Shown here one piece after another: positions 1,230 to 64,000 of a stretch of DNA of 64,000 bases. Each line of letters opens with the position of its first letter. Position 1 is the stretch's first letter. Source of the stretch: Phoronis australis (taxonomy: Eukaryota > Animalia > Phoronida). The notes beneath the pieces are model-generated. The model did not search any database and was not told the DNA's origin. It was given only the letters and a program-made list of their open reading frames with translations. Both the position numbers and the translations under genes were made by a program. The stretch lies in the NCBI GenBank assembly GCA_002633005.1, contig NMRA01000022.1, forward strand, positions 1,714,502-1,778,501. The letters are read 5' to 3'.

Positions 1230-1259
1230 TGTCAATATCAAGTACCGGAAGTACCACAG
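1230..1259 (+). CDS. Putative 30-nt phase-1 micro-exon (xSISSTGSTT), Ser/Thr-rich linker of the multi-Ig gene
   Basis: tattttcAG acceptor and ACAG|gtacgt donor; 30 nt, open in the same 1-1 phase as all downstream exons. Confidence 0.55.
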
Positions 1260-1298
1260 GTACGTTTCTGTCAATTTGACGAGTTCTAGCTAAGCTGA

Positions 1299-2116
1299 AT
1301 TACAACGGGGATAATACATTTTTATTAATAGGCCCAGCCTGAGTTGAACGCTCCTCTTTCGTGGACGAAAAAAAGTCATTACATGATTGTCCTCTTTTTC
1401 AAAATGTCAGGTACTCCTGAATTGATTTGCAGAGAGACACAACAATCAAGCATTTGGATCTGCCAGACTCCTGCAAGTGACTGTTAACCGATAGCTGTCT
1501 TTTTTGCAATTTGTGGTTGTCACAGTTTGAACTCAAAATACAAAAATACAGATTTGCCTGCATTGCAATGGTGAATTACATCACAATTACGTCGTGAGCT
1601 GGTCTGAGTCGGTGACAAATACATCTGCATGTCAAGAAGCAGAACAAGTGCTTGGCACATAACGCTGCATCGCTGATAAATACATGTACTATAATACCGG
1701 TAACAGTNTTACAACGGGGATAATACATTTTTATTAATAGGCCCAGCCTGAGTTGAACGCTCCTCTTTCGTGGACGAAAAAAAGTCATTACATGATTGTC
1801 CTCTTTTTCAAAATGTCAGGTACTCCTGAATTGATTTGCAGAGAAACACAACAATCAAGCATTTGGATCTGCCAGACTCCTGCAAGTGACTGTTAACCGA
1901 TAGCTGTCTTTTTTGCAATTTGTGGTTGTCACAGTTTGAACTCAAAATACAAAAATACAGATTTGCCTGCATTGCAATGGTGAATTACATCACAATTACG
2001 TCGTGAGCTGGTCTGAGTCGGTGACAAATACATCTGCATGTCAAGAAGCAGAACAAGTGCTTGGCACATAACGCTGCATCGCTGATAAATACATGTACTA
2101 TAATACCGGTAACAGT
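1299..2116. repeat. ~408-bp direct duplication around a single N (1708); likely assembly overlap artefact
   Basis: 1299-1707 is near-identical to 1709-2116 and the junction is an N. Confidence 0.7.
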
Positions 2117-3469
2117 CTGTGCTATTTCAGTGCGTTGAACCTATTACAGGATCTGTCGACATGGTTTAATTGAGAACTGCTTTTAATCTGTGCACGTACC
2201 GGTACTTACAACAAAGACGGCGCCACGAAATTCCATTGCGTTCAATTTGAATTGTTAAATATGTAATAATTGAATGGACAGTCAAGGGGTGGATCCAGGA
2301 TTTTGAGTTGGGAGAGGAGAGCAGGACAGACTATTAACCAAGAACTTACCCGTCTGACATTCGCACCCCCGGCGAACTGCCAAACGGAAATCTAGGGGTC
2401 ATGCCCTCCTCCCTAAATTCGTCACTGCAATCAAACAGAAAGCGCAGGCTTGACTTGCCCACATTTACAAAGTGGGACACGTCCTTGAAATAGTACCATA
2501 TTTTATGAGAGTTCATTAATACTCCTGAACACAACACCTTGAGAAATGTAATCTCTTTGTTTCATGTCTTAGTGCAAATGAGGATACCCACTCGAAGCTC
2601 AGCCGCAACATCATCTGTAAAAGCAGTTGCAGCTGCCTAGTTATTTTCAAGAAATAACTAAACACGTCTTAATTAAAAAGCATCGTTTTCCTTATCCCAA
2701 GATCAAGGCCACGAAACAGGCAGAGGCATGCAAACACCAGAGGGTGGTAATGGAATACATACGGCATTGTTTAGGAACTCTTACCACGCTGCGGAACCTT
2801 TGCCTCTGGGAAGAAATCCTTACCACTCAACACGCGTCGCTAAAGCTCGTACCGTGCTCAAAGAGTTCCGGCCGACAGTGCGTAGCGATTGTGACTAGTT
2901 GAAGTTGCATTTCATCCCTGTTAAACAGTCAATACGAAATTTTTTAACCGATGCGCTTTGTGATTCCCTTAACACGTTCACCCGATTCTGAATCTAATGG
3001 GCTGGATACAGCAACTCAACTAAAGTCATGTGCAATACGTACACTGCGCCATTTTCGAATCCAGTTGTGGAGCATTTCTCATCGCTCATGATTTCAATGT
3101 TCGTCTTGGGAACGGACTTAGAATTATATCATGATAAAAATGACGTGGCACACAATTTTATGAGAACAAAAGATTAAGCTTCTGAGGGTTATTTGTGCGT
3201 GGTAAGTCTTCTTGCGATGCGTGGTAAGTGTTTTGCAGAGTGGTTAGTGTTCAGCTAAGGGTCTCGCTTCGTGGTAATGGTTCTGCGACCCACGGCAAGG
3301 GTTACATTACTACTCTTGTACAACAACATATGAATGTCTTCGAAAGTCGTCTGAATGTATAGTCGTCAATTATTTCACATTGTACCTTATGGTGTTTTTG
3401 TGCTAAAGCACTTACAGGCATGTACCACACCCTACCGTCAAATAAATGTTCAATTAAATTACATTTCAG

Positions 3470-3511
3470 CCTCCTTACCAACAACAACTACGATCCTGGG
3501 AAGAAGTACAG
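3470..3511 (+). CDS. Putative 42-nt phase-1 micro-exon (xSLPTTTTILGRST), mucin-like linker
   Basis: acatttcAG acceptor, ACAG|gtaggc donor, 14 codons, Thr-rich. Confidence 0.65.
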
Positions 3512-5098: not shown

Positions 5099-5140
5099 CA
5101 CCAGTAACAACTACGCCTACAGTTGTGTACAACCCTCCAG
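5099..5140 (+). CDS. Putative 42-nt phase-1 micro-exon (xPVTTTPTVVYNPP), mucin-like linker
   Basis: ttttacatttcAG acceptor, CCAG|gtacaa donor; joins in frame to the first Ig exon (G+TT = Val, giving VGPWSV). Confidence 0.65.
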
Positions 5141-5980: not shown

Positions 5981-6310
5981 TTGGTCCGTGGTCAGTGAAC
6001 ATAACTGACTTGAGCAACAACTTGACTATACAACGTGGCACAGACCTTTTGCTCGTCTACAACATTCCACGCAGCCTGGATTGCTTTACCAGTGGCGTTT
6101 ACCCGAACGCCACCGTCGATTGGGGGACTTTGAAAGAGCAGGGCGTTAAACGCGAAATTGATTCAGGACCAAATCAGCATAGGAAGTTCGCAAAGAAGTT
6201 GACCGTTACTCCAACGACAGCGCTGCACAATAAGACAGCCACCTGTACTGCAAACAACACTCTCAACAAAACGCTTTCGGCAAGCAGCTGGCTCATTTTT
6301 AAAGTTGCAT
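5981..6310 (+). CDS. Ig-like domain exon 1 (C2-type) of multi-Ig transmembrane protein
   Basis: ttccAG..T|gtgagt, 330 nt; GPWSV..LDCFTSGVYPNATVDW..ATCTANN (B-strand Cys, Trp, F-strand Cys). Confidence 0.85.
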
Positions 6311-7729: not shown

Positions 7730-7806
7730 TTTTATGCATACATATGCATATGCATACATGCATGCATGCATGTACATACAAGCATGCATGTATGTATATA
7801 TATATA
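7730..7806. repeat. Compound (CATA/CATG/TA)n microsatellite
   Basis: atgcatacatatgcatatgcatacatgcatgcatgc...tatatatata just upstream of Ig exon 2. Confidence 0.8.
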
Positions 7807-7889
7807 TTCCACTGTGCTTTTTCTTTATTATATTTCATCAATTTGTTATATACGTTATTAAACACTACCTCTCCTTCTCCATATTTCAG

Positions 7890-8207
7890 CCGGACCTAGG
7901 GTGGTAACTCTGTACTTCGAAGATTCCGTACAACAAAATAGAAGCGTCCTGTGGAAGATTGCTGGGATAAACGTTACCATTGACTGTCGAACAGATGAGG
8001 TGTACCCAAACGCCACTATGGGCTGGTCCGTATCACAGGTGCAGAGCAATATAAGAGTGAATGGAACAGAGCCCAACCAAGTGTTCTCAATGGCTCTTAC
8101 GTTCGTCACGACTCCACAGCCACGTCAGCGGAGGTACACGTGCTCTGCCAACAACACGCGCGCCCCGTCTCTTTCGACTTGGGCTTTCTTCACACTGAAG
8201 ATACTGT
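7890..8207 (+). CDS. Ig-like domain exon 2
   Basis: atatttcAG..T|gtgagt, 318 nt; GPRVVT..IDCRTDEVYPNATMGW..YTCSANN. Confidence 0.85.
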
Positions 8208-8415
8208 GTGAGTTGACGTAGGTTTAAACATTGTTACTCTTGAATGAATCAGCAAGTACGCCAGAGGTATTCTCACCCTTATAGCTAAGGTTATGTGAAA
8301 ACCCAGAAAAATGTTCCATATCAGCATGTCTTAGAGATTCAAACACAAACCTTTCAGAGACTGTACGTTGTCCATTGCTATCTAGAATCGTTTTAGATTA
8401 TTGTTTTAAAATGTT

Positions 8416-8509
8416 NNNNNNNNNNNNNNNNNNNNNNNNNNNNNNNNNNNNNNNNNNNNNNNNNNNNNNNNNNNNNNNNNNNNNNNNNNNNNNNNNNNNN
8501 NNNNNNNNN
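8416..8509. other. Assembly gap (N run)
   Basis: Run of N. Confidence 0.95.
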
Positions 8510-9655
8510 AGGGGGGGGGGGGCTATCAAAATTGGTACTTCCATGTACGGATTTGATTAAAGACCAAAATTTTGTCCAAGTTAAGACCAAAATCGGGCTA
8601 AGTAAAAACTGAAGAGGAAAATTCAGGAAAGACCATTTCACTAACTTAAGTCCGATTTTGGTCTTCAGTCTTAACTTAGACAGAAATGAAGACGGGATTT
8701 CACATAGGTGAGCATACAAGCTACGCTTTCACCACCTTTTGCAAATCCACATAACTAAGCGAGGCAGTGTGTGAAATACGGTTTCAAGAATCATCTTGGC
8801 CGTGAAACTCTAAACTGGGGTTTATTTACAACAATTTGGACACAATTGAAATCTCGTTTACGTGCAACGATCCTGTTGTGGGTGGAAAATATTTCACATG
8901 TGCGAGTAAGTCGCAATATATTGTCACTTCAAATCTACGCCACTTTGCCAGGTCTCAAATGGCAAGTAGACTATCTTCAATTTGACATTATTTAGGGATA
9001 TTAGATTGTGAAAATATCAACGGATGCTTTTCCTCAACAGTTAGAAATGATAATCATAAACTTTGGTCACTTAGACAAAAAATCTTCTAAGTCTTAGCTT
9101 AGACCGATTTCTGTCTTAATTTTGGTCTTAAGATGCTTGATGAAACGACCTCAGACATTTTGATCTTGAGTTAACCCGATTTCGGTTTTAGTTACGACAG
9201 AAAAGGTTTCCTGAACTTGGCCGTGTGACCCAATTTATTGGCAGGCTGGCGTTAGTCAAAAAATTCTTCAGATTTATGGTTTCAAGAAATTCTGACAATA
9301 TTTAAACTCCATAATTTCTATGTCATTTGCCCAGCTGCGCTGACTTGTTGATACAGTGCTTGGCGCTTAGCTTGACGCCATAAGTTGCATTTGGGACTGT
9401 TATTGTCTTATTATAAGTCAGAAATAAAATGACACACTGAGGCAAGAATATGTTACGAAAGGTCATGAGTCACTCAGATGCAAGTTAACAACAGTGATGA
9501 AATATTCGCAAACTAGGAAAACAGAACCAGAATACGGCGCATCCCCGTGGGCTGCTCATTCAACGCAGGTGGCGAAGGGTTATAACCCACCCAGTTCAAT
9601 CATTCAGTTTTAGGGTCAGCTATTTGAGAGTCTTCTCACCACCTTCATATTTCAG

Positions 9656-9973
9656 CTGGCCCTACGATACTAACTATTTCCTCCGAAAATTCCTTGATAC
9701 CCAATAACAGCATCCTGTGGAAGATTGCAGGCCTAAATGTCACCGTAGACTGTGAAACGGACAATGTGACCGGAAACGCCAGCATCGCTTGGTCCACAGC
9801 GCAGGGGCAGGGCAATGTAAGAGAAATCGGAACACAACCCAATAAAAGATTTTCAGTAGCTCTTACTTTCGTTACGACTCCACATCCACATCTTCGAAGG
9901 TACACGTGCTCTGCCAACAACACGCGCGCCCCGTCTCTTTCTACTTGGGCTTTCTTCACACTGAAGATACTGT
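9656..9973 (+). CDS. Ig-like domain exon 3
   Basis: atatttcAG..T|gtgagt, 318 nt; GPTILT..VDCETDNVTGNASIAW..YTCSANN. Confidence 0.85.
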
Positions 9974-11259
9974 GTGAGTTGACGTAGGTTTTAACATTAA
10001 TACTTACGAATGAATCAAAAAGTACGCCAGAGGTATTTTCACCCTTATAGCTAAGGTAATGTGAAAACTCAGAAAAATGTTCCATAACATCAGGTCTTAG
10101 AGATTCAAACAAACCTTTCAGATAAGATTCTTCGTCCATTGTTCTCTAGAATCGTTTTAGATTATTGTTTTAAAACGCTCCACTATGGCAGGGGGGTATC
10201 AAATTTGGAACTTCCATGCACGGTTTTGATTAAAGAGCAGAAGTTTTGTCAAAGTTAAGACCGAAATTGGCCTAAGTTAAGACTGAAGACGAAAATTCAA
10301 AAAGACCGTTTCACTAACGTAAAGTCCGTTTTTGGTCTTCAGTCTTAGACAGAAATGAAGACGGGATTTCATATAGGTGAGCATATAAACTACGCTTTCA
10401 CCACCTTTTGTAAATCCACATAACTAAGCGAGGCAGTGTTTGAAATACGGTTTCAAGAATCATCTTGGCCGTGAAACTCTAAATTGGGGTTTATTTACAA
10501 CAATTTGGACCCAATTGAAATCTCGTTTAAGTGCGGAGACCCTGTCGTGGGTGAAAAATATCATTTCACATGTGCAAGTTAGTCACCATATATTGTCTGT
10601 TCGAATCTACGCCACTTTGCCAGGTCTCAAATGGCAAGTAGACTATCTTCAATTTGGCATTATTTAGGGATATTAGATTGTGAAAATATCAACGGACGTT
10701 TTTCCTCAACAGTTAGAAAGGATAATCGTAAACTTTGGTCACTTAGACAAAATATTAAAAGTCCTAGCTCAGACCGATTTCTGTCTTTATTTTGGTCTAA
10801 GAAGTTTGATAAAAAGGCTTTAGACATTTTGGTCTTGAGTTATCCTGATTTCGGTTTAAGTTACGACAGAAAAGGTTTCATGAAACGGGCCGTGTGACCC
10901 AATTAATTGACAGGCTGATGTTAGTCAAATTAAATTCTACAGATTTATGGTTTCAAGAAATTCTGACAATATTTAAGCTTAATAATTTCTAGCCATTTAC
11001 CCAAATGCACTAACTTGTTGATGCAGTTCTTGACGCTTAGTTTGACGCCATAAGTTGCATTTGGGACTGTTATTATCTTATTAGAAGTCAGAAATAGAAT
11101 GACACACTGTGGCAAGAATATGTTACGAAGGGTCATGAGACACTCAGATGCAAGTTAACAGCAATGATGAAATATTCCTAAACCCACTCAGCTATAAGTT
11201 CAATAATTCGATTTTAGGGTCAGTTATTCGAGAGTATTCTTACCACCTTCATATTTCAG

Positions 11260-11577
11260 CTGGCCCTACGATACTGACTATTACCTCTGAAAATTCCTTG
11301 ATACCCAATAACAGCATCATGTGGAAGATGCCAGGCCTTAATGTCACCGTAGACTGTGAAACAGACGACATGTTCGGAAACGCCAGCATCGGCTGGTCCA
11401 GAGCACAAGAGCAGGGCAATGTAAGAGAAATCGGAACAGAACCACATAAAAGATTTTTAGCATCTCTTACGTTCGTCACGACTCCACATCCACATCTTCG
11501 AAGGTACACGTGCTCTGCCAACAACACGCGCGCCCCGTCTCTTTCGACTTGGGCATTCTTCACACTGAAGATACTGT
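11260..11577 (+). CDS. Ig-like domain exon 4
   Basis: atatttcAG..T|gtgagt, 318 nt; close paralog of exon 3. Confidence 0.85.
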
Positions 11578-12054
11578 GTGAGTTGACGTAGGTTTTAACA
11601 TTGTTACTCATGAATGAATCAGTGAGTACGGATTAATGCTACGTGAGAACCCAAAATATGTTCCGATTTGGCTAACGTCGGAACATCATATCTTAGAGGT
11701 TCTTAAGCGAAACTTCCAGATATTGCAATGTTCACGATTTATAATTTCAGCGATATTCGCTTGAGCTCTATGCATCTTCTACCGTCTCTCGCAGCGCAAC
11801 AGTAAGAGAAAAAAGAAAACTGATTAAAATGACTGGTACTTATCGTGACTGTTCTTGTCTTAATTATCATAAGTCAGAAATAACACGACTCACTGTAAGA
11901 ATATGTTGCAAAAGGGCACGACCCTCAGATGCAACCCAATAGCAGTGCTGAAATATACACACAAATGTTCTTGGAAAGCAGAGGGAGAGTGCGGAACACC
12001 GCTGTGAGCTGCTTATTCAACACAGGTGGCGAAGGGTCATGACTCATTCAGGTA

Positions 12055-24600: not shown

Positions 24601-24897
24601 CAGTAGTGGCTTGGCCTCGTCGAACTCTGAACAGCACAAGCATTCCATTGAGGTAGGCATAACAACGCACACAGTGCATTTGCACCAAGATGTGTCACCA
24701 CGTCTGTCCTCAGTAGACGCCTCGTTTCTCTCAACAGCTGTCTGTGCCTGTGCGTACTCTGCCTCGTTATACTCGGGCTCAAACATGTACCCACCCACTG
24801 AATGTCCGTGAAAAAATTCCTCGTCACCACTGCTGTGAACAAGGTCTCCGTCACTCACACTACTGTTACTGTGATACGGGTCACCGAGTCCAGCCAT
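24595..24897 (-). pseudogene. P2X7 C-terminal/nanor-like Cys-rich ORF 5' part (Kolobok accessory gene)
   Basis: GYMFEPEY..RRGDTSWCKCTVCVVMPTSMECLCCSE. Confidence 0.7.
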
Positions 24898-27959: not shown

Positions 27960-28298
27960 CCGGCCCCAGACTTGTGACAGTACATCGTTCGTCAGATAGC
28001 GGCAGCGAACAGGTTTTGCACGGCCAAACGGTAGTAGTACAGGAAGGTATTCCGCAAGAATTCACTTGTTTAACAGGCGAAGTCTGGGGAGGAGCACGCG
28101 TGAGTTGGTCGACGACGGGAACGTGGAATATGAATACGATGAAGAGCCAAGAAGTTATTGGACATGGAATGAAATATAGGAATACGGTGACTTTTACTCC
28201 TCGAGTAGTAAAACTTGGCGTCACAGTTGAATGCAGAGCGGTGAATAACCGCGCAACAAGTCTGGCGGCGGTTTTATCATTCACAGTTCACGTTGTGA
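27960..28298 (+). CDS. Ig-like domain exon 5
   Basis: tttcattttAG..A|gtaagt, 339 nt; GPRLVTV..FTCLTGEVWGGARVSW..VECRAVN. Confidence 0.85.
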
Positions 28299-29999: not shown

Positions 30000-30057
30000 A
30001 GGATCGCAGTTTGGACACATTCCCCGGCGTCGTTGCATCTACATGTACCTTAGTATA

Positions 30058-34921: not shown

Positions 34922-35266
34922 GTGGACCCTCTTCCTTGACGTTGGTTGACATGACTACAAGGACGCGCCTGCCCTGGAATCAACCAATAGTTATCAGCGA
35001 AAAGCGAAATCCCCGCCTCTACCTCAAGTGCATTACGGACCTCTCTTTCCCAAACGTCAATATGAACTGGACGAATGAGGATGTCAGTATGACACATAGT
35101 TATCTGGCCCGACTCCAAACTCGTCAACCAGGCAAGAACACGTTCAGTACTGTAATTCAATTGGAGCCCACACGTGCATTGCACATGTCTAGCCTGATAT
35201 GCAACGCCAGTAACTCGTTGGCTCCTTGGATTAAGAAGATTGATCGCGTGCTGCTAAATATTCGAT
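34922..35266 (+). CDS. Ig-like domain exon 6
   Basis: ctctcAG..T|gtaagt, 345 nt; GPSSLTL..LKCITDLSFPNVNMNW..LICNASN. Confidence 0.85.
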
Positions 35267-36707: not shown

Positions 36708-37022
36708 TTGGGCCTGACACCGTCACCGTAGCTGATCTTAAACAAGTCATCTCTGATGGACATAAAGTAAACGTAGTAGCAGGCGATCAGCAGTCGTTTA
36801 AATGCACAAGCAGCGAAACTTGGGAAATTGCTTCTGTGTCATGGTCCATTTCTGGGTTAGAAACCAAGTCTGAAGAAAATGGAGTAATAGCGAAAAAGTA
36901 CACAAACATCATATCATTCACACCAAACGCCGAACAGCATAACACTAACGTGAAGTGCAGTGCACATAATCAATATCACCCCACATTTACAGCATCCTTA
37001 AGCTTCACCATGATGGTTGTCC
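36708..37022 (+). CDS. Ig-like domain exon 7
   Basis: gtatttcAG..C|gtgagt, 315 nt; GPDTVTV..FKCTSSETWEIASVSW..VKCSAHN. Confidence 0.85.
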
Positions 37023-43924: not shown

Positions 43925-44227
43925 ATGGCCCCACTTCGCTTTCCCTCAGGCCTGGAAATATTGTCGATGTTATTCACGGCAAAAACGTGACTATTGACTG
44001 TTTCACGCCTCTACTTTATCCCGACGCCACCATTCAATGGAACAGGTCCCAGGGTCAAGGCGTTAAACGTGTTACAGCAGGCACCGGCGGCAGGAAGTCG
44101 CTGTTGATTAATTTAACGATAACAGGCACGCCCGCTCTAAACTTTGCCAGCTACAAATGTTCAGCCAAAAACACCCAACCAGGAGTATCTATTGCTGCAA
44201 AGACAAGTGTACACATTCGAGTCATTT
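43925..44227 (+). CDS. Ig-like domain exon 8
   Basis: tttttacAG..T|gtaagt, 303 nt; GPTSLSL..IDCFTPLLYPDATIQW..YKCSAKN. Confidence 0.85.
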
Positions 44228-47370: not shown

Positions 47371-47589
47371 TATCGCTATTTTTACTAATGAAAACAAAGA
47401 TTAATCAGGAGCCAACGTGTATTGTTTTTGTCACCCAATAACTGTACCGGGAGTGTGCCATACATTTATTCCAATAGGGCAACACTACAAAATCGTCTGG
47501 CATCTTGTACTCAGATTTTGACTTAGGGCATCATATTATAATTAGTAGTGACACAAATGGCAGATACTGAGAGAGACAGGCGTCAAAAA

Positions 47590-48350
47590 CATACGCGAAT
47601 TCTTAATGGCCACCAGGTGGCGCAGAAAATATCAAGTCTGTGCAAAAATGGGAAAGCCTTGTCGTCTCCTCAATAGAAACCGATTTTCCAAATTTCATGA
47701 AAATGTATGGATGAACTCTGAAGATACAGAGGAAAACGCAAAAAAAAAAATTCGCCACTAGGGGACACTGTGGTATGGTATTGGGATTAGTTTGACATTT
47801 GTCACCTTTTGTCGTCGGCTCCACGGGAACGCATCTTTCAAAGTTTACAAAGCTCATTCAGAGGGTAAAGGTGATTCGGCCGTAAATTAAAAAACAAAAT
47901 CGCCACTAGGGGGAGACACAGTTGTCGAATCCGTCAGAAAGTCAATCTCAGTCGGGGCCTTCTTCTCAGTAACACATCTGTAAATTTTCTTAATGAAGCG
48001 CGATATGGCAGCTAAAAAGGCAGACGCTAGAAAACGGACGCAAAAATAACAGAAATGGCCACAAGGTGGTGTCAGATCCGTCGAATCCGTCCGAAAATGG
48101 AATCGCATCGTCGTCTCCTTACTAAAAACTACTTGCTGAATTTCATGAAAATCCATCAAAAATCCCCAAATACAGAGGCAAACGTAACAATTAAAATTAT
48201 CACTAGGGGGCACCGCGGTATTCGTGTCGGCGCGAAACTCATCCTCCACTGTCTTCAGCCACGTTGGAACACACCTGCCAAATTTCAACAACATCCTGAA
48301 AGGAATTTAGAAGATTCAGCCGCGGACACCGGAAGCCCTAATAGAGATGA
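47590..48350. repeat. Degenerate tandem array of ~145-155-bp units each carrying a CCACxAGGxGG motif
   Basis: Motifs at 47610, 47755, 47903, 48059 and 48200; recurring aaatttcatgaaaat; a related reverse copy at ~28480-28660. Confidence 0.6.
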
Positions 48351-51169: not shown

Positions 51170-51430
51170 AGCGCCACTACATGCGCGCACCCAGCCTAAA
51201 AATGGGGGGAGAGCTCCAATTGTTGAGAATGTGGACCTTTTACAAAGAATTCAAGGGGTATATTCAGAGCAATGAATTGTGCATTCGCCGAATTTTTGTA
51301 GTTCCTGCCTTTTTGCTGCACTTTTGTCTCGTTTTCTATTTTTTTCGCAATTTTTGTTTCTCTAAGACGGACTTTTTGCTTACTTCGTTCTAGACCCTCG
51401 ACCCCCCGGGTGCGCGCATGTACTACTGTA
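51170..51430. mobile_element. Short MITE-like element
   Basis: tacatgcgcgcaccc and gggtgcgcgcatgta inverted ends; partial copy at ~49220-49290. Confidence 0.45.
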
Positions 51431-51622
51431 TCGCCTGTGTACGTGGAAACATAATCTATGGTGGAAATAAGTGAGCACATGTCAAGAAATTGGCAAAAAT
51501 AAAAACCTGTCGAAATGAATGAAAATCTCACAATTTGGAGCGTATATACTATATTGCATGTGACTACAGACCTGAAAAGCCGCAGTCTAGTGCAAAATAA
51601 TGGGCAATTTTGGCGTTTTTAG

Positions 51623-51952
51623 ACGGACCAACGCTCGTGTTTGTCACCCACAACATTAGCAATCAATACATTCGAAATGTGACGAACAAGACTGTGGAAG
51701 TATTGAGCGGCAAAACACAGCTATTGACTTGCACAACAGACATGTCTTGGAAAACAGTTGACATCCTGTGGACGTACGCAAGCGCACGCGTAGTGGAAAC
51801 CAAACAAATCTGGCAACTCGGCAGAACGTTCACGAAAAGCCTGGTGCTCAAACCTCAGTCTACATGGCATGGAGACGTCGTCACCTGCAGTGCTTTCAAC
51901 GTAGCTCACAATGCATTTATAGCCAACTCCTCCTACACTCTTAAGGTTGTAG
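51623..51952 (+). CDS. Ig-like domain exon 9
   Basis: gtttttAG..G|gtgagt, 330 nt; GPTLVFV..LTCTTDMSWKTVDILW..VTCSAFN. Confidence 0.85.
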
Positions 51953-52349
51953 GTGAGTGCAGCATCTGCGAAACCACCTTAATTGTTCACGTCAAATCAT
52001 CTCTGGTTTACTCTAGTCGGACGGTATTCACCGTGTGAGTTGTGATGTCTACATGTAAATGTCAGCCCGATCCGTCGACGATGCGAGCAGTAAATTTTTA
52101 AAGCACTGAAATTACCTTTGATTTGATTGAGGAAAATTTGAGACCATTTATAACAGTCTGTCGTATGAATCAATACTATGAAGTCGCTTTAGAGGAATTT
52201 TGAACCTGCGTTCATGGGTTTTTGGTAACGAACCCTCGGCTTTGCATCCCTGTTATTGTAACGAAGAGGTAGAAATCAAGTAACGATTGAGATTAAAGAG
52301 TTGGATCACTAGCGATATCGATTAACTTCATCTTGACCATTTTTTGCAG

Positions 52350-52670
52350 ATGGGCCGAGTCGGGTGCATATAACTATATCGGACGGGCAGGATGTGGTGA
52401 AGGAAGTGAAGATGTACTCCGGTCAACCAGATTTGACACTCTCCTGTACAACGGACTATGTCTACCCTTGGGCGGATTTAGTATGGCAGCCTGCCGGTGA
52501 AGTCTCCCAAAGTGTTAGACTTGGAAATACGTTCCAACGAAACACGATTATTAACGTTGATAATTTTACCGACGTCATAGTGAAGACTTGCGTGGCTACA
52601 CGCACAAACCATCCACTTAACTTTCACTTGACGCCTTCGGCCAATGCTTCCGTAACCATCAGGAATACTC
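52350..52670 (+). CDS. Ig-like domain exon 10
   Basis: ttttttgcAG..C|gtgagt, 321 nt; GPSRVHI..LSCTTDYVYPWADLVW..KTCVATR. Confidence 0.85.
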
Positions 52671-53600
52671 GTGAGTGAGGCTCCAACTATGATCGTTCCT
52701 TTTGTTGGTCAGAGCAGCCACTTGTGACATAGGGGGGATAATATATGTCGACTGAGACAACGTATGCAGTCACTTTGTGATGCTACGTATTGTGACTACC
52801 TAAAAGCGTCCATCTTCAACAAAAATGTTTTGCTGTATTCATGATGTAGGCCTACGCAATACTGCGTGTAACCATAGGTTAAGGTAACGGCAAATAAAAA
52901 CTTCGACGAAGAACTCTCCTGGTAGATATGGTGGATGTTTCAAGGATCTCAATGAAGATCCAAGGTCAAAGTTGGAGGATTACTGAGAAAAACAGGCATT
53001 TACAATTCCAAATGTTAAAGTTTACAAATCAACGTGACCGCAAACGAGGCTCGCGTCAGACATGGTTAGTATTATCTCCAACCATGCAATCCTGAACTTT
53101 CCGCGTTTAACTTCCTACTACCTCGTTTTGGTTTTTCACAATTTCCTGAATCCCCGCTAGACTCTGGATCCGCCTATGCCCCAAAAAGCCTAGTGTACAG
53201 ACTACCTTTCAACACACCGGGGGGAAAATGCATCGCCAGTGTTTATTGCACATAGTGTTGCATCCGACATGTATTGTCGCCCGGCTGACAATGTGTTAAA
53301 GGCATGCAGGCCTATCGTCGCGTTGGTCCTGTATTGTCGCTCCAACAGCGTTCTCTTTAACAGCATCCTTTTCCCCCTTTCTGCTGTTGTTTTTTCATCA
53401 GCTCGAATTCAGTTCTTAATAAGTAAATTCAACCGTTCCGCTAATTTTAATGAGTGAAATCGCCTGTTCGGCGGCCATTGATCGCTCTAACGTACGAGCG
53501 GCTGAAAAGAATGCCTGTCATACATGTACATGTATGTTTGCATGTACGTTTATAGTGAACGTCATTGGACTCCGTTCTCACCACGATTGGGGTATTTCAG

Positions 53601-53921
53601 ACGGACCGCGCGTTGTGCAAATATACATAAGAAATCGGCCAATCGGCTACGAGGACAAGCATATTGATGAGGGTATGACCTTGGACGCCAGATGTGTTGC
53701 CGAAGATTACTCACCAGGTGTTACAATTGATTGGATTATGCTGACAACTCCTGACGACGTGTATGAGCATTCGGAAGTCGGACAATTTAGGACGATAAAA
53801 TCTGAAAGTTCCCTTAGGTCCTTCGTAGATTTCCAGTTGCACGGATCCAAGGTTACATGCAAGGCGACGAATACGGGAAACTTGGCTCAAGTCAATGCAT
53901 CATTTAGGTTATTGGTTCATT
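53601..53921 (+). CDS. Ig-like domain exon 11
   Basis: gtatttcAG..T|gtaagt, 321 nt; GPRVVQI..ARCVAEDYSPGVTIDW..VTCKATN. Confidence 0.85.
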
Positions 53922-54849
53922 GTAAGTAAATCTGGGAATTCAAAACGCCCCTTCCTTAGATTTTTTTGGTGTACCAACTTGTCGCAGTCATGCATTTTCA
54001 AATAATACTTTCGGGACATAAAATGCTTCTTGACTGACTGAGATTGTTTAACTTGTACTATCTGGTGCACAAAATTTGAGTCATAATCACTCCTAATTTT
54101 CTCTTGAGTAATACCCATACCCGTATTCTACACAAGACAACTGCGTAAGGTTTGATAAGCGGGGGAAAAATGCGAGCTCGACCCCCTCCTTCAGTCGGCT
54201 TTAGTCTCACCGCGACTGCCACCACCCATTTTAGCCCGGAGGTCCGACACCATAATTTCCCCCCGTCATCTTCGGTCGACAACCTAGTACTTGTCCATGC
54301 ACCTCCATCGTCACTAATTGTACCACTTGACAACACCTTTACCTCCGCTCGTAGGAAAGTACACATTGTTGGGCAATGAAGCCGGCATCAGTCCATCGTC
54401 CATGGTCGTCGCCTATTTCGCATCTTGCTCCATCGCCATCATAGGCACGCAGAGTTTACTGCTAGGGGAGCAAATAGTGTACAGGCAGCCTCCAAAAACT
54501 TACCTTTCCACGCTTCAACAAAATTACGTAAAAAAGTTGTCCGCTTATTTTTGTACTTTTTCACTTCATTACAGAACCAAAAACATGGGCTGCCCGAATC
54601 ATTTTTTGAGCCATGTACAAAAGTAAGGTAAGATACCCCTACTGCGGGCTGTAAAATCTGGAGAAACGTGAGGAGGAGGATCATCACCTCAGAATCCGGC
54701 CCTTAGGAAAGTAAACATTATTGAAGGGGAGGGGGAGACCCAGCTGAGACTTTTGCGCCCCTTCCCCATTGGCACCATTGCCCCTTCCCTCCATTCTCCA
54801 GATGTCGCCCTATTCCACCCGCCATACGTCGCGCGGAAGCAAACATCAG

Positions 54850-56480
54850 TATTGATAGGGACCACAACACCCCACAAACGACACAACCGTACACCCTACA
54901 AACTTGACTGTTTACAAAACTGTATTCTCACAATCATCACAAACACCCCCACAAACTCTCCACAAGACACCTCCACAAATTCACAACTCTTCACAAGCCA
55001 CCAGAGAAGCCACAACACAACAGAGATAGGTGTCGCTTGTAACTAGTTACATACCAGGCGGGTGTTCAGTTGGCCCAAGGACCTATGCTAGGACCTAGCT
55101 AAAATCTAGTCAAAGTCACGTGTTCATTTAAAGTACACGGCAATATCTCACGTAATCCCGCGAAGTCTTGCTTTTTAACGAGGTCCTAGCGTTGCTGAAC
55201 GGGAGGCAGCATTAGTAAACACTAGCCGGTCAAGTTCAATACAGGAACACAGGGGCATTACTGGAATAATTTTTCCCAAACAAAGGCGCCGACTCTCTAG
55301 GTGAAGGCTGCGTGCAGAATAAATTGATTGGCACCAGGCCCGACTGTGCCGCCGATAACAAGCCTACAATTGGAAAGATAAGTTACCCTGAAGTACTGGG
55401 CGTGTATTCGGTGGTCGGTGCCAAAATCTGTTGAAACTGTGGAAACACAGGACATGTGTTGGCAGTGAGCAGTATGAGAGAACCACTGTACCTACAAGCA
55501 TTTCTCAGTTAAAAACTGGACTCGGCAAAGTAAATGCTGATATCCAGTGCACAGAGCACCAAAAAGGTGACAAACCATAATGACACCGAGCAACGCAGTT
55601 CCCATGTGACATTCATCCTACTTATAGAGTGAAGTCGGGGAAAACCATGAGAACTATTCTCGCCAGTCTATGTACATGTACTAGTCACCATCGGTATGAG
55701 CGACATCATAAATGTGCTATTCGACATACAACCTCCGAGGAACCCTAACCGTTCATGTACCATCAGTAAATACGACCACATACAGACTTCATAGTTTCAA
55801 ACATGTCTCCTCTTAGTGACGGAACCCTCCAGACGGTGCCATTAAAAGTTTATATGAGCTTTATGAGCTTATCATCCTTCAAGTGTCTTAACAGAATATT
55901 AAAACCGGATTCTCTGCTGCAAGTATGTGTATACGTTCCTTAGTTAGTCTTTGTAAACTTCATGTAATGAATGTCCCTGCTCTCAATCCTTTTTTCGTGT
56001 ATAGTTATCACATAATACTACTTTGTGATGCTGACCTAATTGTATCACAACTTCTTCTAAATACTGTAAATATTTTAATGCAACTCTTGCTTTAGATCGA
56101 CTACCTACGGGCTAGTGTTCACCGTTCGTGTTGCTTTGAGTATAAATAAACAGACTATGTATGTATGATGTACCAACATGTATGTAAAACCTAACTTGCT
56201 AATGCCTAAGTCACGCCCACATACGTATCTCTCACATGATTCTCGTAATCATACCTACTGAGATAGCGACACCTGTTTCTGGTGTGTTGTGGAATTTGTA
56301 GTGTTATGTATTGTGTAGGGGTGGTGTTGTCAGAATATGGGGAAAGTGTGTGAATTGTGGGATGTTGTTTCGATTGTGGGGGATGTTGTAGATGGTTTTA
56401 GAGTGTTGTAGTCATTGTTTGTGTGCGGAGGGGTGGGGGGGGGGTTGTGGTGTGTGTGGGGTGTTGTTGGACCTATACGC
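54850..56480. mobile_element. Unclassified element with CA-rich/GT-rich imperfect inverted ends
   Basis: atagggaccacaacaccccacaaac..aggtgtcgct (54854-55037) is mirrored by agcgacacct..ggggtgttgttggacctat (56265-56477). Confidence 0.45.
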
Positions 56481-56782
56481 TTCCATACATCATAACCCGA
56501 GTAACCATGTTACAACTAAGTTTGTAGTCATGGAAAGCGAGAATGAGAGCTAAAGGCTGAGATTTCATGTCTGTATTTCTCAAGTGAACTATGGCTGTAA
56601 GCTACATGTAGCAGCTGAACGTGTGAAAATATGAATTGGATAGACCAGGGTAGCCGCTGCTTAGCTATGATTTACTTGAGCCAGGAAGCTCAGCTCTTTC
56701 CTATCTATCGGTACTGGCCATAAGGTAACAACAACCATTCGGTAACAGCAGTGCTACGGTGACTGTTCCGATTCATTTCTAG

Positions 56783-57076
56783 TTGGCCCTAAAAGAGCAG
56801 ATGCCTTAGTCGACGACAAGCAAGTAAGTCTCGTCCGCGTAAACGAAAGCGACTCAATCACATTGTCGTGTAGAACCGATGACGTATTCCCCTCGGCCGT
56901 AGTGGAGTGGTCGCACGGGACTGATAAGGCCTCGTATCGCCAGGGTATGCGATATTATTCACGCACGACGCTATCCGAGGTATCCAAGGGAATGAACCGC
57001 CGCAATGTTACCTGCACTGCAAAGCGTCCTGATTCAGTCAGTTCAGTTAAGGCAGAGGTTACACTATACGTTACAC
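56783..57076 (+). CDS. Ig-like domain exon 12
   Basis: ttcatttctAG..C|gtacgt, 294 nt; GPKRADA..LSCRTDDVFPSAVVEW..VTCTAKR. Confidence 0.85.
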
Positions 57077-58905
57077 GTACGTAATGCGGTGTGCGCTAAT
57101 CTGAAAAAGTTTCGAATGTTCGCTGTATTTCCGTATCGTGTGCATAGTTTAGACATAGCTGCTCAAATATTTTCACGCTCATCAAAATTCTAGAAATGCC
57201 CAACTTTTCTGGATTTTCTTCTTTTGAAAATTGTGTGCACTTTGCTAAAAATGTGAATTGCTCTTCTTTCGTTGTGGTACGAATCTCATGACTCCAATGC
57301 GTCGACACATCTGAAGTAACGTGTTAGCCCGCAGATGAGTCACTTACCCAGAAGCAGATAGAAAAGCTCTTGCTATTTCACATTGCATCATTAGGTGAAT
57401 GAGGACTTGATCTTTGTAGGACTTCTCAAAAAGTTTTAGCATCACTATAATATAATCTTTTCTTACGCCACCATTTTCACATTGATAAAAGGTGTTCAAA
57501 ATTTGAGGATATTGCCGAAAATTGAAAATAAGTCTCCAAACAAGATGTACATGTTTAATAAGAGAAGTTAATTGCGTGTCTCATCATAAATCTTGCGAAT
57601 CAAATAGCAAGTTCAATTAAGAAAAAAACATAACGAAATTAAATTATAAAAATTAAAGTTGTGTGCCACCTAGTGGAAGAATTAAGTAGTGGCCTTTTAC
57701 ATTGTACAACAGACACTGCATCTCTTTGTTTTTTTAATGACATAGTTGGGAATATTATTTAGGAATTCATTCAGGATATTAAATGTGGAGTACTGGTGTG
57801 CCACAAATTCACATAATTAATATACAAGGACACAAGAGCTAACTTTGTGTAAAAAAAACAAGGAAACAAGATTTTCAGATTTATTGAATAAAAAACATTT
57901 CATCTCAAGAAATCAATTCAACGTTTGCAGATCATCCTCCAGGGCTCTGGATCCCTAGAAATTGGGGCCGAATATCGACCCCATTCTCTTCACAAAAATA
58001 TTCAAAACTCACACGAAATTACCCTCATCAGGTCGAAAAATTCGCCTGCGAACAATCAAACATTCCCCTCATGCTTTGAGACAACCTCAAAAATATCGTG
58101 ATGACTTTAGTCACGAGGCCGCCCGACACCAGAAACGTCATAAACTGGTTTCCTTATAAAACAAGTGTCACTTACAGGAGTGTTAGAACCATTTTTGTGA
58201 TATTACACTCTCGCGTATTGACACGCAAAACCAAAAACCTCCATGTGTCCTTGGCTGAAAGTGGCACCCAAACAAGTTCTACAAGAGGAGAAATATGAAA
58301 AACCATGCAGTAGAGCACAGAAACATACAGAAAAGTGTCTTTTCAATGGTGCACTTTTCTTAGAAACAGTCCCAAGTCAGACCGCACTTGAAATCATCTC
58401 GGAAGTATTTGTGTTCTTCTGACGGTGACTAGAGGTTGGTACTTCATAATGACTTAATGTTATATACAGTGTACATACTGATTAGTGAATTCATAAAAGA
58501 GTTTAGAATCCCCTCTGAGTAAAAAACGCCGCGAAAACTTACCTTTTAGGCGGTACAGGCAGCGTTCCATCGGGTGAGTGAGGGCACTGTTGCTCGTGCA
58601 ACTTGTGTCTTAAAGAATTTTAGCAAGAGCACAGGGTAGTGCCATCCACTGTATGCTGATCCTACAATGCTCCACGTTCCATCTAAATCCCTTTAGGGAC
58701 GGCGCATACATGAACTGACTACTATAGGAGAATAAAGCCTAATTAGATTTTTGTTCATTAACGTTAACTAAAAGGATACTAGGCCCTGTTTTGATGACTT
58801 CAATCGATGATCGTTCTGTCACCTGCTGATGCATGGTCGGCGCACTATAGGAGGCTGGGGAGCTACACCCCCACTTTTTTCACTGCTGCGCCGCCCATGT
58901 GATGC

Positions 58906-59788
58906 AACATTGGCGCCAATCGTGGAAATCAAAGACATGAATCAACTAAAACTCATCCTCCCCATGTCACAGATTGGACCTAATGGTCCTTGGTGGGTGG
59001 CATTTTCCCACAGTTTCCGCGAAATTCGCTAAAAGCATAGGACACGCTTTCCGGTTTAGCAAACTTTGAAAGGTTGCTGAGGATCGGTTACAGAACATTA
59101 TTTTGTGTCGGAGAACTGGATGTGAAAGCCGCTTTTAGAATCTGTTAATAAGCCAAAACCATGGGCTGCGCAGCACTGAAAAATGTGGAGGCTAAATCCC
59201 CCACCCTCTGTGGTGCACCAGCGATAGACCATGGGCGGTGCAGTACCGAAAAAAATGGTGCTATATCCCCCAGTCAACTATGGTGCGCTGCCCAGGAAAA
59301 CCAGGTTTGGTATCCTTTCAAGCAGAAGTGCGCGTTGAATAAGTCANAACATTGGCGCCAATCGTGGAAACCAAAGACATGAATCAACTAAAACTCATCC
59401 TCCCCATGTCACAGATTGGACCTAATGGTCCTTGGTGGGTGGCATTTTCCCACAGTTTCCGCGAAATTCGCTAAAAGCATAGGACACGCTTTCCGGTTTG
59501 GCAAACTTTGAAAGGTTGCTGAGGATCGGTTACAGAACATTATTTTGTGTCGGAGAACTGGATGTGAAAGCCGCTTTTAGAATCTGTTAATAAGCCAAAA
59601 CCATGGGCTGCGCAGCACTGAAAAATGTGGAGGCTAAATCCCCCACCCTCTGTGGTGCACCAGCGATAGACCATGGGCGGTGCAGTACCGAAAAAAATGG
59701 TGCTATATCCCCCAGTCAACTATGGTGCGCTGCCCAGGAAAACCAGGTTTGGTATCCTTTCAAGCAGAAGTGCGCGTTGAATAAGTCA
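58906..59788. repeat. ~440-bp direct duplication around a single N (59347); likely assembly/haplotype artefact
   Basis: Two copies differing at very few bases, joined at an N. Confidence 0.7.
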
Positions 59789-59989
59789 AAGCAGAATGAA
59801 GTTCATTAACGAACTAATTCAGCGCGTTGATTAATCACATGTCAACAAGCAGAAAGGCACTCGTTTAAGAACCCATTGGCTCTTTATATGGTAGACCTCA
59901 CAGTCAGTTGAATATATGCACAGTAATATGCGACACGATAAACAAGCTCCGCCTATTACGAAATAAAGCCCACACTCATAACGTTTCGA

Positions 59990-60463
59990 CAATATTTTCT
60001 TTCAGATTAGAACATGCTGTTATAAGTGCCTTTTGCACTTAGAGGGACACCTTAGGAGGCCGTTGATATCTTTAATTCCTTCCAACCCGAATAAATACTT
60101 CCGTAATCAAACTTCGTTCAGTTCCTCAAATCGGCAAATGCACATTTTTACACTGTGCTCCCTCCTATTTTACCGCGCCCGGCATGAGCGGGCGCAGTGT
60201 TAAAATGGCCAGTTGCCAATTTGGGCAACTGAACGAAGGTCAGCCAAAATGTTTGAGTATTCATTAGGGTTGGAAGGAATCAAAGACATGGACGGCCTCC
60301 TAAGGTGTCTTCCTGTGCGCAAATGCTACTTATGAAAACGCGACTTTGATATTTTAATCAGATTGAGCCATAATTCGTCGAAAAGCTTCCAGCGTATGAA
60401 GCTCATGCTATAAGATCTTCATCGTCTCTACTGGGGCCAGCGAGAGACAACGGTCACTATCTA
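59990..60463. mobile_element. Diverged palindromic relative of the 41746-42677 element
   Basis: acaccttaggaggccg..ttccttccaacc mirrored by ggttggaaggaa..cggcctcctaaggtgt; shares ataattcg.cgaaaagcttcc with the 42.6-kb TIR. Confidence 0.55.
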
Positions 60464-60559
60464 CTATACGACTGTCAGAACTATCCATTATTCGCTTGCT
60501 TAATTATTCCTTTTACAAGTAAATGGATTCCTTCTTTGATGCAGTATTGTCCGTTGCAG

Positions 60560-60889
60560 ATGGCCCCAAGTCAGTGATAGTAACTGATGACAAGCAACGG
60601 AAATTCAGCGAAAACGCTGACATGGATGTCATCACGGGAGTAACGTACACTCTGAATTGCCTCACTGATGACGTGTGGCCTGGAGTGCACATTGAATGGC
60701 ACGGGGCGTCTGGTCTGGGCGAGCAGATGGATGTGAGATCGCAACAGTCGAAGACCGGAATACGAGTATCAACGCAACTGAGCATGGAGCCAAACATTTC
60801 AAGTGACGAGCAGGTGTTGTGGTGCATCGCCGTAAACTCTGACAATGCTGGCATATCAGCAAAAGCAAAACTTACGCTGAAAATAATAC
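60560..60889 (+). CDS. Ig-like domain exon 13 (membrane-proximal)
   Basis: ccgttgcAG..C|gtgagt, 330 nt; GPKSVIV..LNCLTDDVWPGVHIEW..LWCIAVN. Confidence 0.85.
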
Positions 60890-62299
60890 GTGAGTGAAAT
60901 AATATTTCAGTAAGAAAACAATGAGAAATTGGTCAAGCGTATTTTAAAAAGCCAAGGCCAAATGTGTTGTCCTTGCGGACTTTACTGGCGAATGAATGCA
61001 TGCGGCAAAGTACAACGATGTTAAAACTATCCAACGCATGACGATACTATGTGCTAAAAGGGACACCGAGAAATGTATACGGATGTTTGATTAGGCCACG
61101 GGTTCACAGATATCGAGGTACATAGCCACAAATCGACCAGCTCGTTTTAGGTCGTAGGTGTGGGCTCGATAATGACTTCCTTTCTAGCACACAGCATCAT
61201 CTGATGTTAGATTGTTTTGTATTGTTGTATTCTGTTCCTTGCTACGTCCTCAACGAAACTTTCATTGCCAGTTCTAGAACTGAATGTCAGATATATGCTA
61301 ACCTATTTTTAAACTGGTAGAAAAGTTTTCATAAAGAGAATGAAAATTTCGATTTTCAGGAAACGCATCGTCAGTCAACGAGTTAGATATTAAACATGCT
61401 GGACAATAAATAACTGGATGTCTTTGTTCTACTGAGAACGTAAACCACTTGGCTGGAATAATTTCTTGTACCATAACGATACCTGTAACAAAAAAGAAAG
61501 TGAAACTTAAAGGTCGTTGCAATAAGGCTGCAATAACATCAGCAACTACTTACGTAGGTAACTAAGCACCAGAAATTACTTACTGGTATGTAAACAAGGC
61601 AAAAAAACGCTTTCCTTGAAATGGTAGAGTTCTTTCCATGAAAATGTTTGTTTCAGTGCCTACAACGTGAAAATACGTACACCTTGCGAATGCTTTTATC
61701 TTACTCAATAACTCGAGTTAAAAGGATAATAAACCCTGTTTTGACGATTTCAACCATTACCGTCATTCTGTCACCTGATGCATCGTTGACGTCAATCTTG
61801 AAAGCTAGAGGCAAGAAACAACTAAAAACACACACCCCGTATCTCACGTGATATTGTTAGATATCGTGTTCCTTGTTGGGTGGTCTTTTCCCACAGTTGC
61901 CCTGCATTTCGCTAAAACCCCATTTAGCAGACTTTGAAATTAGTTTTCAAATTTTTGGCCAAATATTTGAGGGTCACAGTATTGTTTTGTTTCTGGGAAC
62001 TGGATGAGAAAGTAGCTTTTAGTATCTGTTTTAAAATTTAAAATGGGCCAAAAGAGCGGATTTGGTATTTTAAGCAACAGGTACCAAAATGTCCAAAAGA
62101 AGTTATTAATGATGCAAAATGTTGTTATTATGAAATTATCTTTTATTCAATCGTGACATCACTGGCAGATTTGATTTTAAAGGAAATTATTACCTTTTCA
62201 AGGTATAATGGACAATTAGAAAAAATGAGCAACTAAAAATACTGCAGACCAGAATCAACTATGCTTTTGACCTATATTCCTTTTCTCCACATGGCCATC

Positions 62300-62460
62300 G
62301 CTACCTGCCTACGCCCCTGCCTCCCTCCCTCACTCCCTCCGTCCTTCCTTCCCTCCGATTTTGTCTGTCGCACTCTCCGTGCCTCCCTCCCTCCTTCAAG
62401 CTGCCTGCCTCTCCCACGCCTCATCCACTCTTCTATCATACTTTCATCCCTCTCTACTAT
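62300..62460. repeat. (CCCT/CCTT)-rich low-complexity tract
   Basis: ctccctccctcactccctccgtccttccttccctcc. Confidence 0.7.
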
Positions 62461-62610
62461 AGGAAAAAAATTCTGATAATCTCTCGTCCTAACAGACTAA
62501 CCTCAAGAGTGTAATGTATGGACGAACTCCAGATAAGCTCTTCTCTTCAAGCTTCTCTGGTGGCTCTGGGAATATCTCAGTTTTATAAAGCATATTTCCA
62601 TATGTTGCAG

Positions 62611-64000
62611 AGTCAGAAGATGTGCTCATGCACGCTGATCTTCAAAACTGGGCCGTCCCTTTGTCCGTGTTCCCGGCCGTTGCGCTGCTTTTGGGGGTGC
62701 TCGTAGCTGTGTACAAGCGCATGAAAGTGAAGAACATACTGCGGCGGCATGGTCAACTCGAACATGAGTTACAGCAATGTTTGAAAGAAGGAGATGATGA
62801 GACTGCAGACGTTGCAATGAATAAGTACAAGGCGTTATTGAGTAAAAACAAGACACTGGTTAGACCCAATGAAGAACTGGTCAAAAAGGTTGAGGACAAA
62901 CTGGAGACGTCAAACACTGAAGTAAACGACCTCTTGACCAAGGTTAAGAAGGACATCGGTGTAGCAGTGGCTAGCGGTGACGCCACACAGATGGAAGCAG
63001 TGCTGAGAGGTCTGAAGCAGTTCTGCACCGACCAAGGAAGTCACTTGAGTATGCAGAAAGTAAAAAAGGAAATGTACAAGCTTCAAGACGAGATCGAGAA
63101 AGTGAAACCGACGGCAATCAAATTCAACGAAGTGGATTTCCCCCAGCCTGAAAAGAAAACGGTGTTCACGCCAGACGTTGGAGCTGTAAAGAGACCGTCA
63201 TCAACATCGGGTCGGGAGCCGGGTCAACTTGACTTAAAAACACAGTGTGATGCTCTAGTGAAGGGATTGTACGCAGCTATCAAGGGCGGTGACCAGACTG
63301 CAATAAAGGAATCATTAGCTAACTACCTGGAGTTTGTTCAGGAAAATAAAGGAGCGGTGAGGAGGGATGAATATTTGATAGCGCGTGCAAAGGCGTGTTC
63401 GAGCCAACAGTTACAGGATTTACACCAAGAACTCGTGTGCCGCCTGAGGGAATCCATGGCCGCAGCGCAACCTGCGGGGTCAGATATTGCCTCTGGACTC
63501 CAGTCTTACAAGGATTTCGTTCGCAAAAACGAGCGCTATATCCCAGCGAACACAGGTCTTATTGCTGAGGCTGAAAGCATGCTTACTCGTTGCAGGAGTG
63601 ACGCAAAGAGGCAAGCGATGTCTTCCAGATCGAAAACAGAAGGAACGTCTGGCGGTTCTTTGTTAGAGCCAGAGCGCGAATTAAGGAAACATGTACTAAA
63701 CATAGACACAGTGACGTTTTCATCTATGAAAGATTACAAGAAACCACCCCAAATTGTGCACAGGGTCGTCAAAGCTACTTTACTTATACTGGGAGACTCC
63801 GAACAGGATATCGAGAACTGGGAAACGTGCCAAGATCGGCTTGCCGTAGTTCCTTCGCCCAACAATCGCGGTGGTTTGTTCAACCGCATAACACAGTTCA
63901 AGGTACAGTCAGTTAGTCCCGAAATTGCTGCCAGAGCAAGATGGTACTTAAAAGGTCTTTCAAAAGAGTTCGTTGAAATGGTCAACTCCGGAGCAACAAT
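62611..64000 (+). CDS. Large phase-1 exon: transmembrane helix, cytoplasmic helical repeats and dynein-MTBD-like domain (open past the window end)
   Basis: tatgttgcAG acceptor; ~463 stop-free codons; TM WAVPLSVFPAVALLLGVLVAVY (62649-62714) followed by KRMKVK; C-terminal ..SMKDYKKPPQIVHRVVKATLLILG..NWETCQ.. Absent from the ORF track because there is no stop in the window. Confidence 0.85.

Follow-up and report, generated by a model that had tools for sequence, protein, structure and literature searches.

An immunoglobulin receptor gene of Phoronis australis spliced to a membrane-anchor exon with a predicted dynein microtubule-binding-domain fold

Can a cell-surface receptor carry the foot of dynein in its own tail, and would such a foot still grip microtubules? 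The question is raised by a stretch of 64,000 nucleotides from the phoronid Phoronis australis (GenBank assembly GCA_002633005.1, contig NMRA01000022.1, positions 1,714,502 to 1,778,501 of the forward strand), here called the window and numbered from its first letter. An original prediction, made from the letters alone, had proposed plus-strand, phase-1 exons joined in one stop-free frame of about 1,895 amino acids and encoding a receptor with 13 immunoglobulin (Ig) domains, one transmembrane (TM) helix, four helical repeats and a domain resembling the microtubule-binding domain (MTBD) of dynein; the protein was suggested to be an adhesion or recognition molecule that could tether directly to microtubules, for example in cilia, flagella or sensory processes. 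We found that the gene is spliced into RNA which joins the Ig exons to an exon for a membrane anchor, putative helical repeats and a predicted MTBD fold. The protein has, in our judgment, an even chance of being a cell-adhesion or recognition receptor whose tail docks a putative cytoplasmic partner instead of gripping microtubules in the manner of dynein. The gene extends past both window edges, and its N-terminal start and C-terminal end lie beyond them.

The exon chain, with splice sites read from the sequence, comprises 17 exons, all on the plus strand, with AG at 17 of 17 acceptors and GT at 16 of 16 donors. All 16 complete exons are phase-1 symmetric and divisible by three in length. Joined, the 17 exons give 5,686 nucleotides and 1,894 amino acids with no stop, which bears out the predicted frame. 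The encoded order is a serine/threonine (S/T) linker, 13 Ig domains, one TM helix, putative helical repeats and a C-terminal MTBD-like domain, the last cut by the window edge. Three micro-exons rich in serine, threonine and proline were placed by their splice sites and frame: two encode S/T-rich linker (1230..1259, 30 nucleotides, phase 1, with AG/GT ends; 3470..3511, 42 nucleotides) and the third a linker rich in proline and threonine (5099..5140, 42 nucleotides). The 13 Ig exons, of 294-345 nucleotides each, lie at 5981..6310, 7890..8207, 9656..9973, 11260..11577, 27960..28298, 34922..35266, 36708..37022, 43925..44227, 51623..51952, 52350..52670, 53601..53921, 56783..57076 and 60560..60889. 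The terminal exon (62611..64000), supported by its frame and by RNA, encodes the TM helix and the whole visible cytoplasmic tail and is still open at the window end. Among six-frame open reading frames, 13 Ig-like frames and one 470-codon frame running to the window end were present, all on the plus strand.

To assess splicing, we used three runs of raw RNA reads from one study, chosen by species label (X1, X2 and X3; about a fifth of each was read), and a contig set (X4). Reads were mapped to 44001-64000 for X1 to X3 and to 27750-47700 for X1 and X2 only. Stranded reads back nine of the ten junctions between 11577 and 62611, six as exact GT..AG joints, one displaced and two as loose read ends. 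The joint from Ig 13 to the tail exon, 60889^62611, is of the GT..AG type and was found in 16 reads of X1 (11 starts) and 19 reads of X2 (16 starts), all oriented as plus-strand RNA; this predicted junction is thus confirmed by 35 reads in two runs. The other exact joints were 28298^34922 (14 + 6 reads in X1 and X2, respectively), 35266^36708 (22 + 24), 37022^43925 (10 + 11), 52670^53601 (13 + 13) and 53921^56783 (11 + 7). Joint 51952^52350 (14 + 5 reads) was reported at 51950/52349 with one letter between, a base difference. The loose end before 27960 (17 X1 reads) corresponds to the last 30 nucleotides of Ig exon 4 with an agreement of 1, a stretch in which exons 2 and 3 each differ by one base, and the loose end behind 44227 (17 X1 reads) corresponds to the first 30 nucleotides of Ig exon 9 at 51623 with an agreement of 0.75. 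The predicted upstream chain was recovered at eight further joints from 11577 on, but not at 57076^60560, which was absent from the best 15 of 58 joints.

Read depth over the gene differed between the runs. In X3 it was zero in bins 52005-52671, 53339-54005, 56674-57340, 60676-61342 and 62677-64000, all of which were covered in X1 and X2; Ig exon 12 (56783..57076) showed stranded depth in the same two runs and none in X3, and the tail exon was expressed up to the window end in X1 and X2. Intronic repeats (around 49300-50700, 55100-55200 and 58800-59300) were covered in X1, X2 and X3 on both strands. Expression of the gene depends on the sample, on in X1 and X2 and off in X3, and is probably tissue- or stage-specific. 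The X4 contigs (32 million letters) gave no depth over the tail and were uninformative. The RNA support consists of short reads, which do not prove one full-length molecule.

The ectodomain was examined with a leave-one-out profile test in which the three near-duplicates Ig 2-4 were taken out together. All 13 Ig exons contain two cysteines each and match the profile of the other Ig exons at E values of 2.8e-8 to 5.5e-21; two cysteines and one tryptophan are invariant in 13 of 13 domains. Pfam matched 11 of the 13 exons to an Ig-type family at E<=0.1 (Ig exon 6 to C2-set_2 at E 4.4e-6), one alone above the family cut-off. No 14th Ig exon was found with the 13-exon profile among 1,268 six-frame open reading frames, the next best scoring E 0.72. 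The same profile matched 718 PDB sequences at E<=0.001, and the best 60 of these 718 are all Ig proteins, headed by SYG-2 (E 2e-19) and followed by titin and neural adhesion molecules. A single hydrophobic segment at 62655..62711 (mean hydropathy 2.53 versus 1.43 for the next best) is followed by basic residues and predicted to be the TM helix. N-glycosylation sequons number 35 upstream of it and one downstream. Ig 13 is spliced directly to the TM exon, leaving 14 residues to the start of the helix, and no fibronectin type III domain lies between the Ig chain and the TM helix. We infer that the protein belongs to the immunoglobulin superfamily and has type I topology, with a signal peptide that would lie upstream of the window; the 13 Ig domains and single TM helix of the original prediction were borne out by the profile test and the hydropathy peak.

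Ig exons 2-4 (window 7870-11630) are recent tandem duplicates including flanking introns. The regions of exons 3 and 4 are 89-91% identical in DNA and either is 80-82% identical to that of exon 2; the proteins share 62-86%, the highest value being that between Ig 3 and Ig 4. The duplication suggests either an ectodomain that is still lengthening or alternative use of the exons.

What, then, is the tail? Searched on its own, the window tail gave no PF12777 and no dynein match (Pfam; PDB sequence search), and PF12777 did not match the window's MTBD-like domain (63657..63998, truncated by the window edge where helix H6 ends) at E<=10. The link to dynein appears solely through relatives. A family alignment was built from the window's last 263 residues and 31 shorter relatives. 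Its profile matches dynein MTBDs at E 1.6e-14 to 4e-12 (DNAH6 1.6e-14; isolated yeast MTBD 3e-12), and 10 of the 31 aligned relatives match PF12777 at E<=0.1. The alignment-based structure model, which leans on this alignment, has a mean predicted local distance difference test (pLDDT) value of 77.6, with blocks of 70-98 across the MTBD-fold domain. It matches the dynein stalk tip with Z 13.3 and a root mean square deviation of 1.9 Å over 104 residues, and dynein MTBDs are the five best of 48,161 chains (Z 13.3-8.9; VIA structure search). In Foldseek the nine top rows were dynein or axoneme entries, none at E<=0.001, and the top Atlas match (0.96) was an MT-domain cluster (49% with PF12777) at a recognition value below the tool's threshold. 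A single-sequence model (pLDDT 64.6, strand-rich) did not give the MTBD fold, is at odds with the alignment-based model and was rejected. The fold core is kept, with three invariant columns in the family alignment. Profile and predicted fold alike identify the last domain as a genuine homologue of the dynein MTBD, and in this form the predicted MTBD-like domain holds without a direct PF12777 match. It is predicted to share the six-helix fold of dynein heavy chains (PF12777 MT; PDB 5ayh, 3err, 6kjn, 6rzb; DNAH6); unlike these, the window protein carries the domain on a membrane-protein tail, with no motor (AAA+ ring) and apparently no long stalk before it. No AAA or other dynein Pfam domain was found in the tail exon. 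In the model, the helix ahead of the MTBD-fold domain is interrupted by a Gly/Ser linker of low confidence (residues 144-149), and the CC2 side of a stalk would lie past the window end.

Between the TM helix and this domain, 62745..63614 is predicted to encode four hairpin-like helical repeats in two pairs (about 62745-63095 and 63252-63614) with a proline-rich linker between them. Scored with a profile built from the repeats that precede the domain in its relatives, this region reached 13.8 bits, compared with 7.3 for the best of 500 block shuffles, although helical sequences score by composition. The four predicted repeats are backed by this weak match and by helices in the model. The visible tail yielded no kinase or phosphatase Pfam match and no immunoreceptor tyrosine-based inhibitory, switch or activation motif (ITIM, ITSM or ITAM) and no NPxY motif.

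A HMMER search of 1.84 billion representatives with the tail exon returned 69 matches at E<=0.001 (best 1.2e-12) and no close relative. In 69 of 69 matches the best stretch fell in residues 291-462 of the exon, and none covered the TM helix or the first repeats. Among the 46 relatives scanned with Pfam, 21 contain Ig-like_KY, six of these together with Transglut_core; the other domains found were one CLCA plus VWA, one VWA, one LRR and one PF12777. The named organisms in the 20 clusters examined are molluscs, annelids, a flatworm, a tunicate and amphioxus. Judged by sequence, the nearest relatives are not dyneins but a motor-less invertebrate family, a working grouping and not a curated one, made up of the tails of kyphoscoliosis peptidase (KY)-like proteins and of amphioxus CLCA-like and CD20-like membrane proteins. 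The original prediction had not recognised that the tail comes from this wider family and not straight from dynein. The window domain matches a profile of the 31 relatives built without its own row at E 1.5e-27, the relatives having been found with the window sequence. Invertebrate KY-like proteins of molluscs, annelids and amphioxus, known with this C-terminal domain from database entries only, share it at up to 40% identity over 102 columns and have helical repeats ahead of it that match the window tail weakly. They differ from the window protein in carrying Ig-like_KY and sometimes transglutaminase-like domains, in having no TM helix and in keeping the glutamate of helix H1; none of the 14 large window exons gave an Ig-like_KY or transglutaminase-like Pfam match. 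A pearl-oyster KY-like protein contains three MTBD-like copies, and a snail protein consists almost entirely of two tandem copies.

Membrane proteins also occur in the family. A hydropathy scan flagged five of the 69 relatives, of which three from amphioxus are credible membrane proteins: one is CLCA-like and single-pass, and a further pair has hydrophobic segments at the N-terminus, one of the pair being weakly CD20-like. A simple repeat and a protein with a borderline score were rejected. The Branchiostoma CLCA-like (XP_019614282.1, XP_078700756.1) and CD20-like (XP_066272931.1) proteins likewise end in repeats plus an MTBD-like domain, but have a CLCA/VWA ectodomain or a multipass bundle instead of Ig domains, and their domains lie near the family consensus. 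In the amphioxus CLCA-like and CD20-like proteins (P0021, P0087, P0060, P0068) this repeats-plus-MTBD end retains an intact H1 motif, and direct microtubule binding may be more likely for them than for the window protein. Repeats and MTBD, we infer, travel together as a single module. Among the relatives examined, none with Ig domains was found: none of 88 proteins compared matched the window Ig profile at E<=1, word-indexed searches for longer relatives found none (weak evidence), and one with the amphioxus tail found three proteins, none with Ig domains. A quick version of the domain tree left 35 of 63 inner branches open and gave the window domain an end branch of 0.93 (median 0.45). We name no donor for the tail, because the tree leaves the window domain unplaced.

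Can the window domain still hold tubulin? According to PMC7042235, yeast dynein forms six tubulin salt bridges through K3117, E3122, R3124, R3152, R3159 and R3201, and mutating each positively charged contact residue cost more than twofold in affinity; K3299 and R3337 are discussed as contacts of the mouse protein in PMC6629372. In the profile alignment the six yeast positions are occupied in the window by Thr, Ser, Lys, Glu, Ala and Met. Hence the window domain keeps one of six contacts, the fewest among 64 domains: counting only domains with all positions present and dropping those gapped at these columns, 20 of the 63 related domains keep two, 26 three, 15 four and two five. With relaxed positions the window keeps two and is equalled by one relative and exceeded by 62. 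At the E3122 position (window codon 63723..63725), glutamate is found in 72 of 72 related domains and serine in the window, the sole exception of 73, even though the relatives were found with a query lacking this glutamate. The net charge of the H1/H3/H6 face is -3, the most acidic, as against -1 to +4 in relatives. The family thus looks, from these positions, like tubulin binders and the window copy like an outlier.

The combination of a kept fold core and a lost tubulin face supports docking over gripping. If so, a long glycosylated Ig rod would engage a neighbouring cell or ligand, and the helical repeats would form a spacer of about 290 residues holding the MTBD-fold domain off the membrane. 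That domain would serve for passive docking that needs no ATP. Clustered at contact sites, it could link these, through a cytoplasmic partner, to a cytoskeletal or trafficking scaffold; no ATP cycle is expected because the motor is absent and the stalk apparently so. The TM-plus-tail exon may stem from a KY-like gene or one akin to it, captured through shuffling or retroposition. The presence of TM helix and tail in one exon fits a one-step capture, and since amphioxus CLCA-like and CD20-like proteins end in the same module, grafting onto membrane proteins has a sequence precedent. Several points weigh against the docking reading. The contact residues were assigned manually in a profile alignment with about 18% identity, and H3 contacts shift among dyneins themselves (PMC7042235). 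The whole window domain has a net charge of +2, the lysine equivalent to R3124 is kept and two more lysines follow it directly, so that the domain may retain residual microtubule affinity. In addition, the C-terminus beyond the window may hold other motifs, and the tree does not single out a donor subfamily for the tail.

A receptor that tethers directly to microtubules, as originally suggested, is the main alternative, though less likely than docking. Here clustered tails would bind the lattice weakly and with avidity, without ATP, and would anchor contacts or the ciliary membrane. The modelled fold match to the dynein MTBD would allow this, and the family keeps the H1 glutamate in all 72 domains and the following arginine or lysine in 61 of 72, as expected of tubulin binders. 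Furthermore, the motor-free yeast MTBD still binds microtubules, with a dissociation constant of 6.7 uM (PMC7042235), and a chain that is probably the microtubule-decorating ICMAP2 of PMC12819142 (9ya2_L, described below) matches the domain at Z 7.2. The window copy itself speaks against direct tethering, as it has lost the H1 glutamate and exchanged the H3 arginine for glutamate and the H6 arginine for methionine, changes to be seen beside the affinity losses of the yeast contact mutants. With five of six salt-bridge positions gone, including the invariant glutamate, the idea of a direct tether is weakened.

A decaying MTBD-fold domain, carried as a passenger of the captured exon while function needs only the TM helix and the first helices, is improbable. 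The missing family-invariant glutamate, the long end branch and the lack of a close relative among the representatives would all suit decay, but the frame stays open for 1,390 nucleotides to the window end, core residues are kept, the model of the domain is confident and transcription of the exon reaches the window end. Still less likely is a split of the exons into two or more genes, with the tail exon as a separate gene or dynein remnant: the unlisted joint 57076^60560, the want of a full-length transcript in short reads and possible alternative use of Ig 2-4 leave some room for it, but 35 reads join Ig 13 to the tail exon, strand and on/off pattern between X1/X2 and X3 are the same for every exon from Ig 8 onwards, the tail exon included, and no AAA or other dynein domain was matched in the tail exon.

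Among known receptors, SYG-2/nephrin and other C2-set Ig adhesion molecules also combine tandem C2-type Ig domains with a single TM helix. Nephrin has 8-9 Ig domains, fibronectin type III and a tail with tyrosine motifs, and in the nephrin/SYG-2 family a fibronectin type III domain lies between the Ig chain and the TM helix. The window protein differs in its 13 or more Ig domains, in lacking a fibronectin domain ahead of the TM helix and in a folded tail of at least 428 residues. As a rule, adhesion receptors are connected to the cytoskeleton by adaptors. A transcript-supported receptor whose own tail contains a domain derived from dynein represents a new combination of domains; its parts are known and their assembly appears new. 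A literature search, limited on subscription papers and supplements, turned up no account of any Ig receptor that has an MTBD-like tail, in agreement with the earlier statement that no such receptor had been described, and none of a KY-MTBD or CLCA/CD20-MTBD fusion. Taken together, the relatives reveal a broad invertebrate family of motor-less MTBDs, apparently unstudied so far, which has been joined to peptidase-like, VWA, LRR, CLCA and CD20-like proteins. Its members with an intact H1 motif would be expected to bind microtubules, and the window copy would represent another binding mode or a repurposed fold. More tentatively, marine invertebrates may have repeatedly grafted a motor-less dynein foot onto membrane-protein tails, fastening the surface directly to microtubules without adaptors or ATP, with the window gene as the first adhesion-type member; we regard this as rather unlikely.

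Non-motor chains also matched the modelled MTBD-fold domain: 7jrj_I (radial spoke head, Z 8.3), 9fqr_Xl (sperm axoneme, Z 7.7) and 9ya2_L (Toxoplasma intraconoidal microtubule, Z 7.2). All three are soluble or axonemal and not receptors, and the matches are partial or weak with middling Z. Residue range and size suggest that 9ya2_L is the Toxoplasma protein ICMAP2. According to PMC12819142, ICMAP2 decorates microtubules at 8-nm spacing; in that paper the word "dynein" occurs in the reference list only, and the MTBD likeness may be unreported. An 'MTBD-like' candidate from the literature (PMC12366701) proved to be an unrelated TTLL motif and was discarded.

Outside the exons, about 410 bases at window 1290-2116 were seen by eye to occur twice, head to tail, flanking a single N at 1708, and likely represent contig ends that overlap where a scaffold was joined. 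No Pfam match at E<=0.001 was obtained for broken frames resembling retroelements near 32600-34100 and 46600-47000. Introns contain reverse transcriptase fragments at 14847-15269 (plus strand, E 7.5e-8) and 31439-31993 (minus strand, E 2.7e-16), and a minor GT..AG joint, 28298^31324, seen in three X2 reads, leads from Ig exon 5 to a cryptic acceptor in the retroelement remnant. In the 16-kb intron, a THAP domain on the plus strand (E 3.4e-11) faces a P2RX7_C-like frame on the minus strand (E 4.8e-5) at 23813-24957, likely a DNA transposon remnant, which we take to be Kolobok-like.

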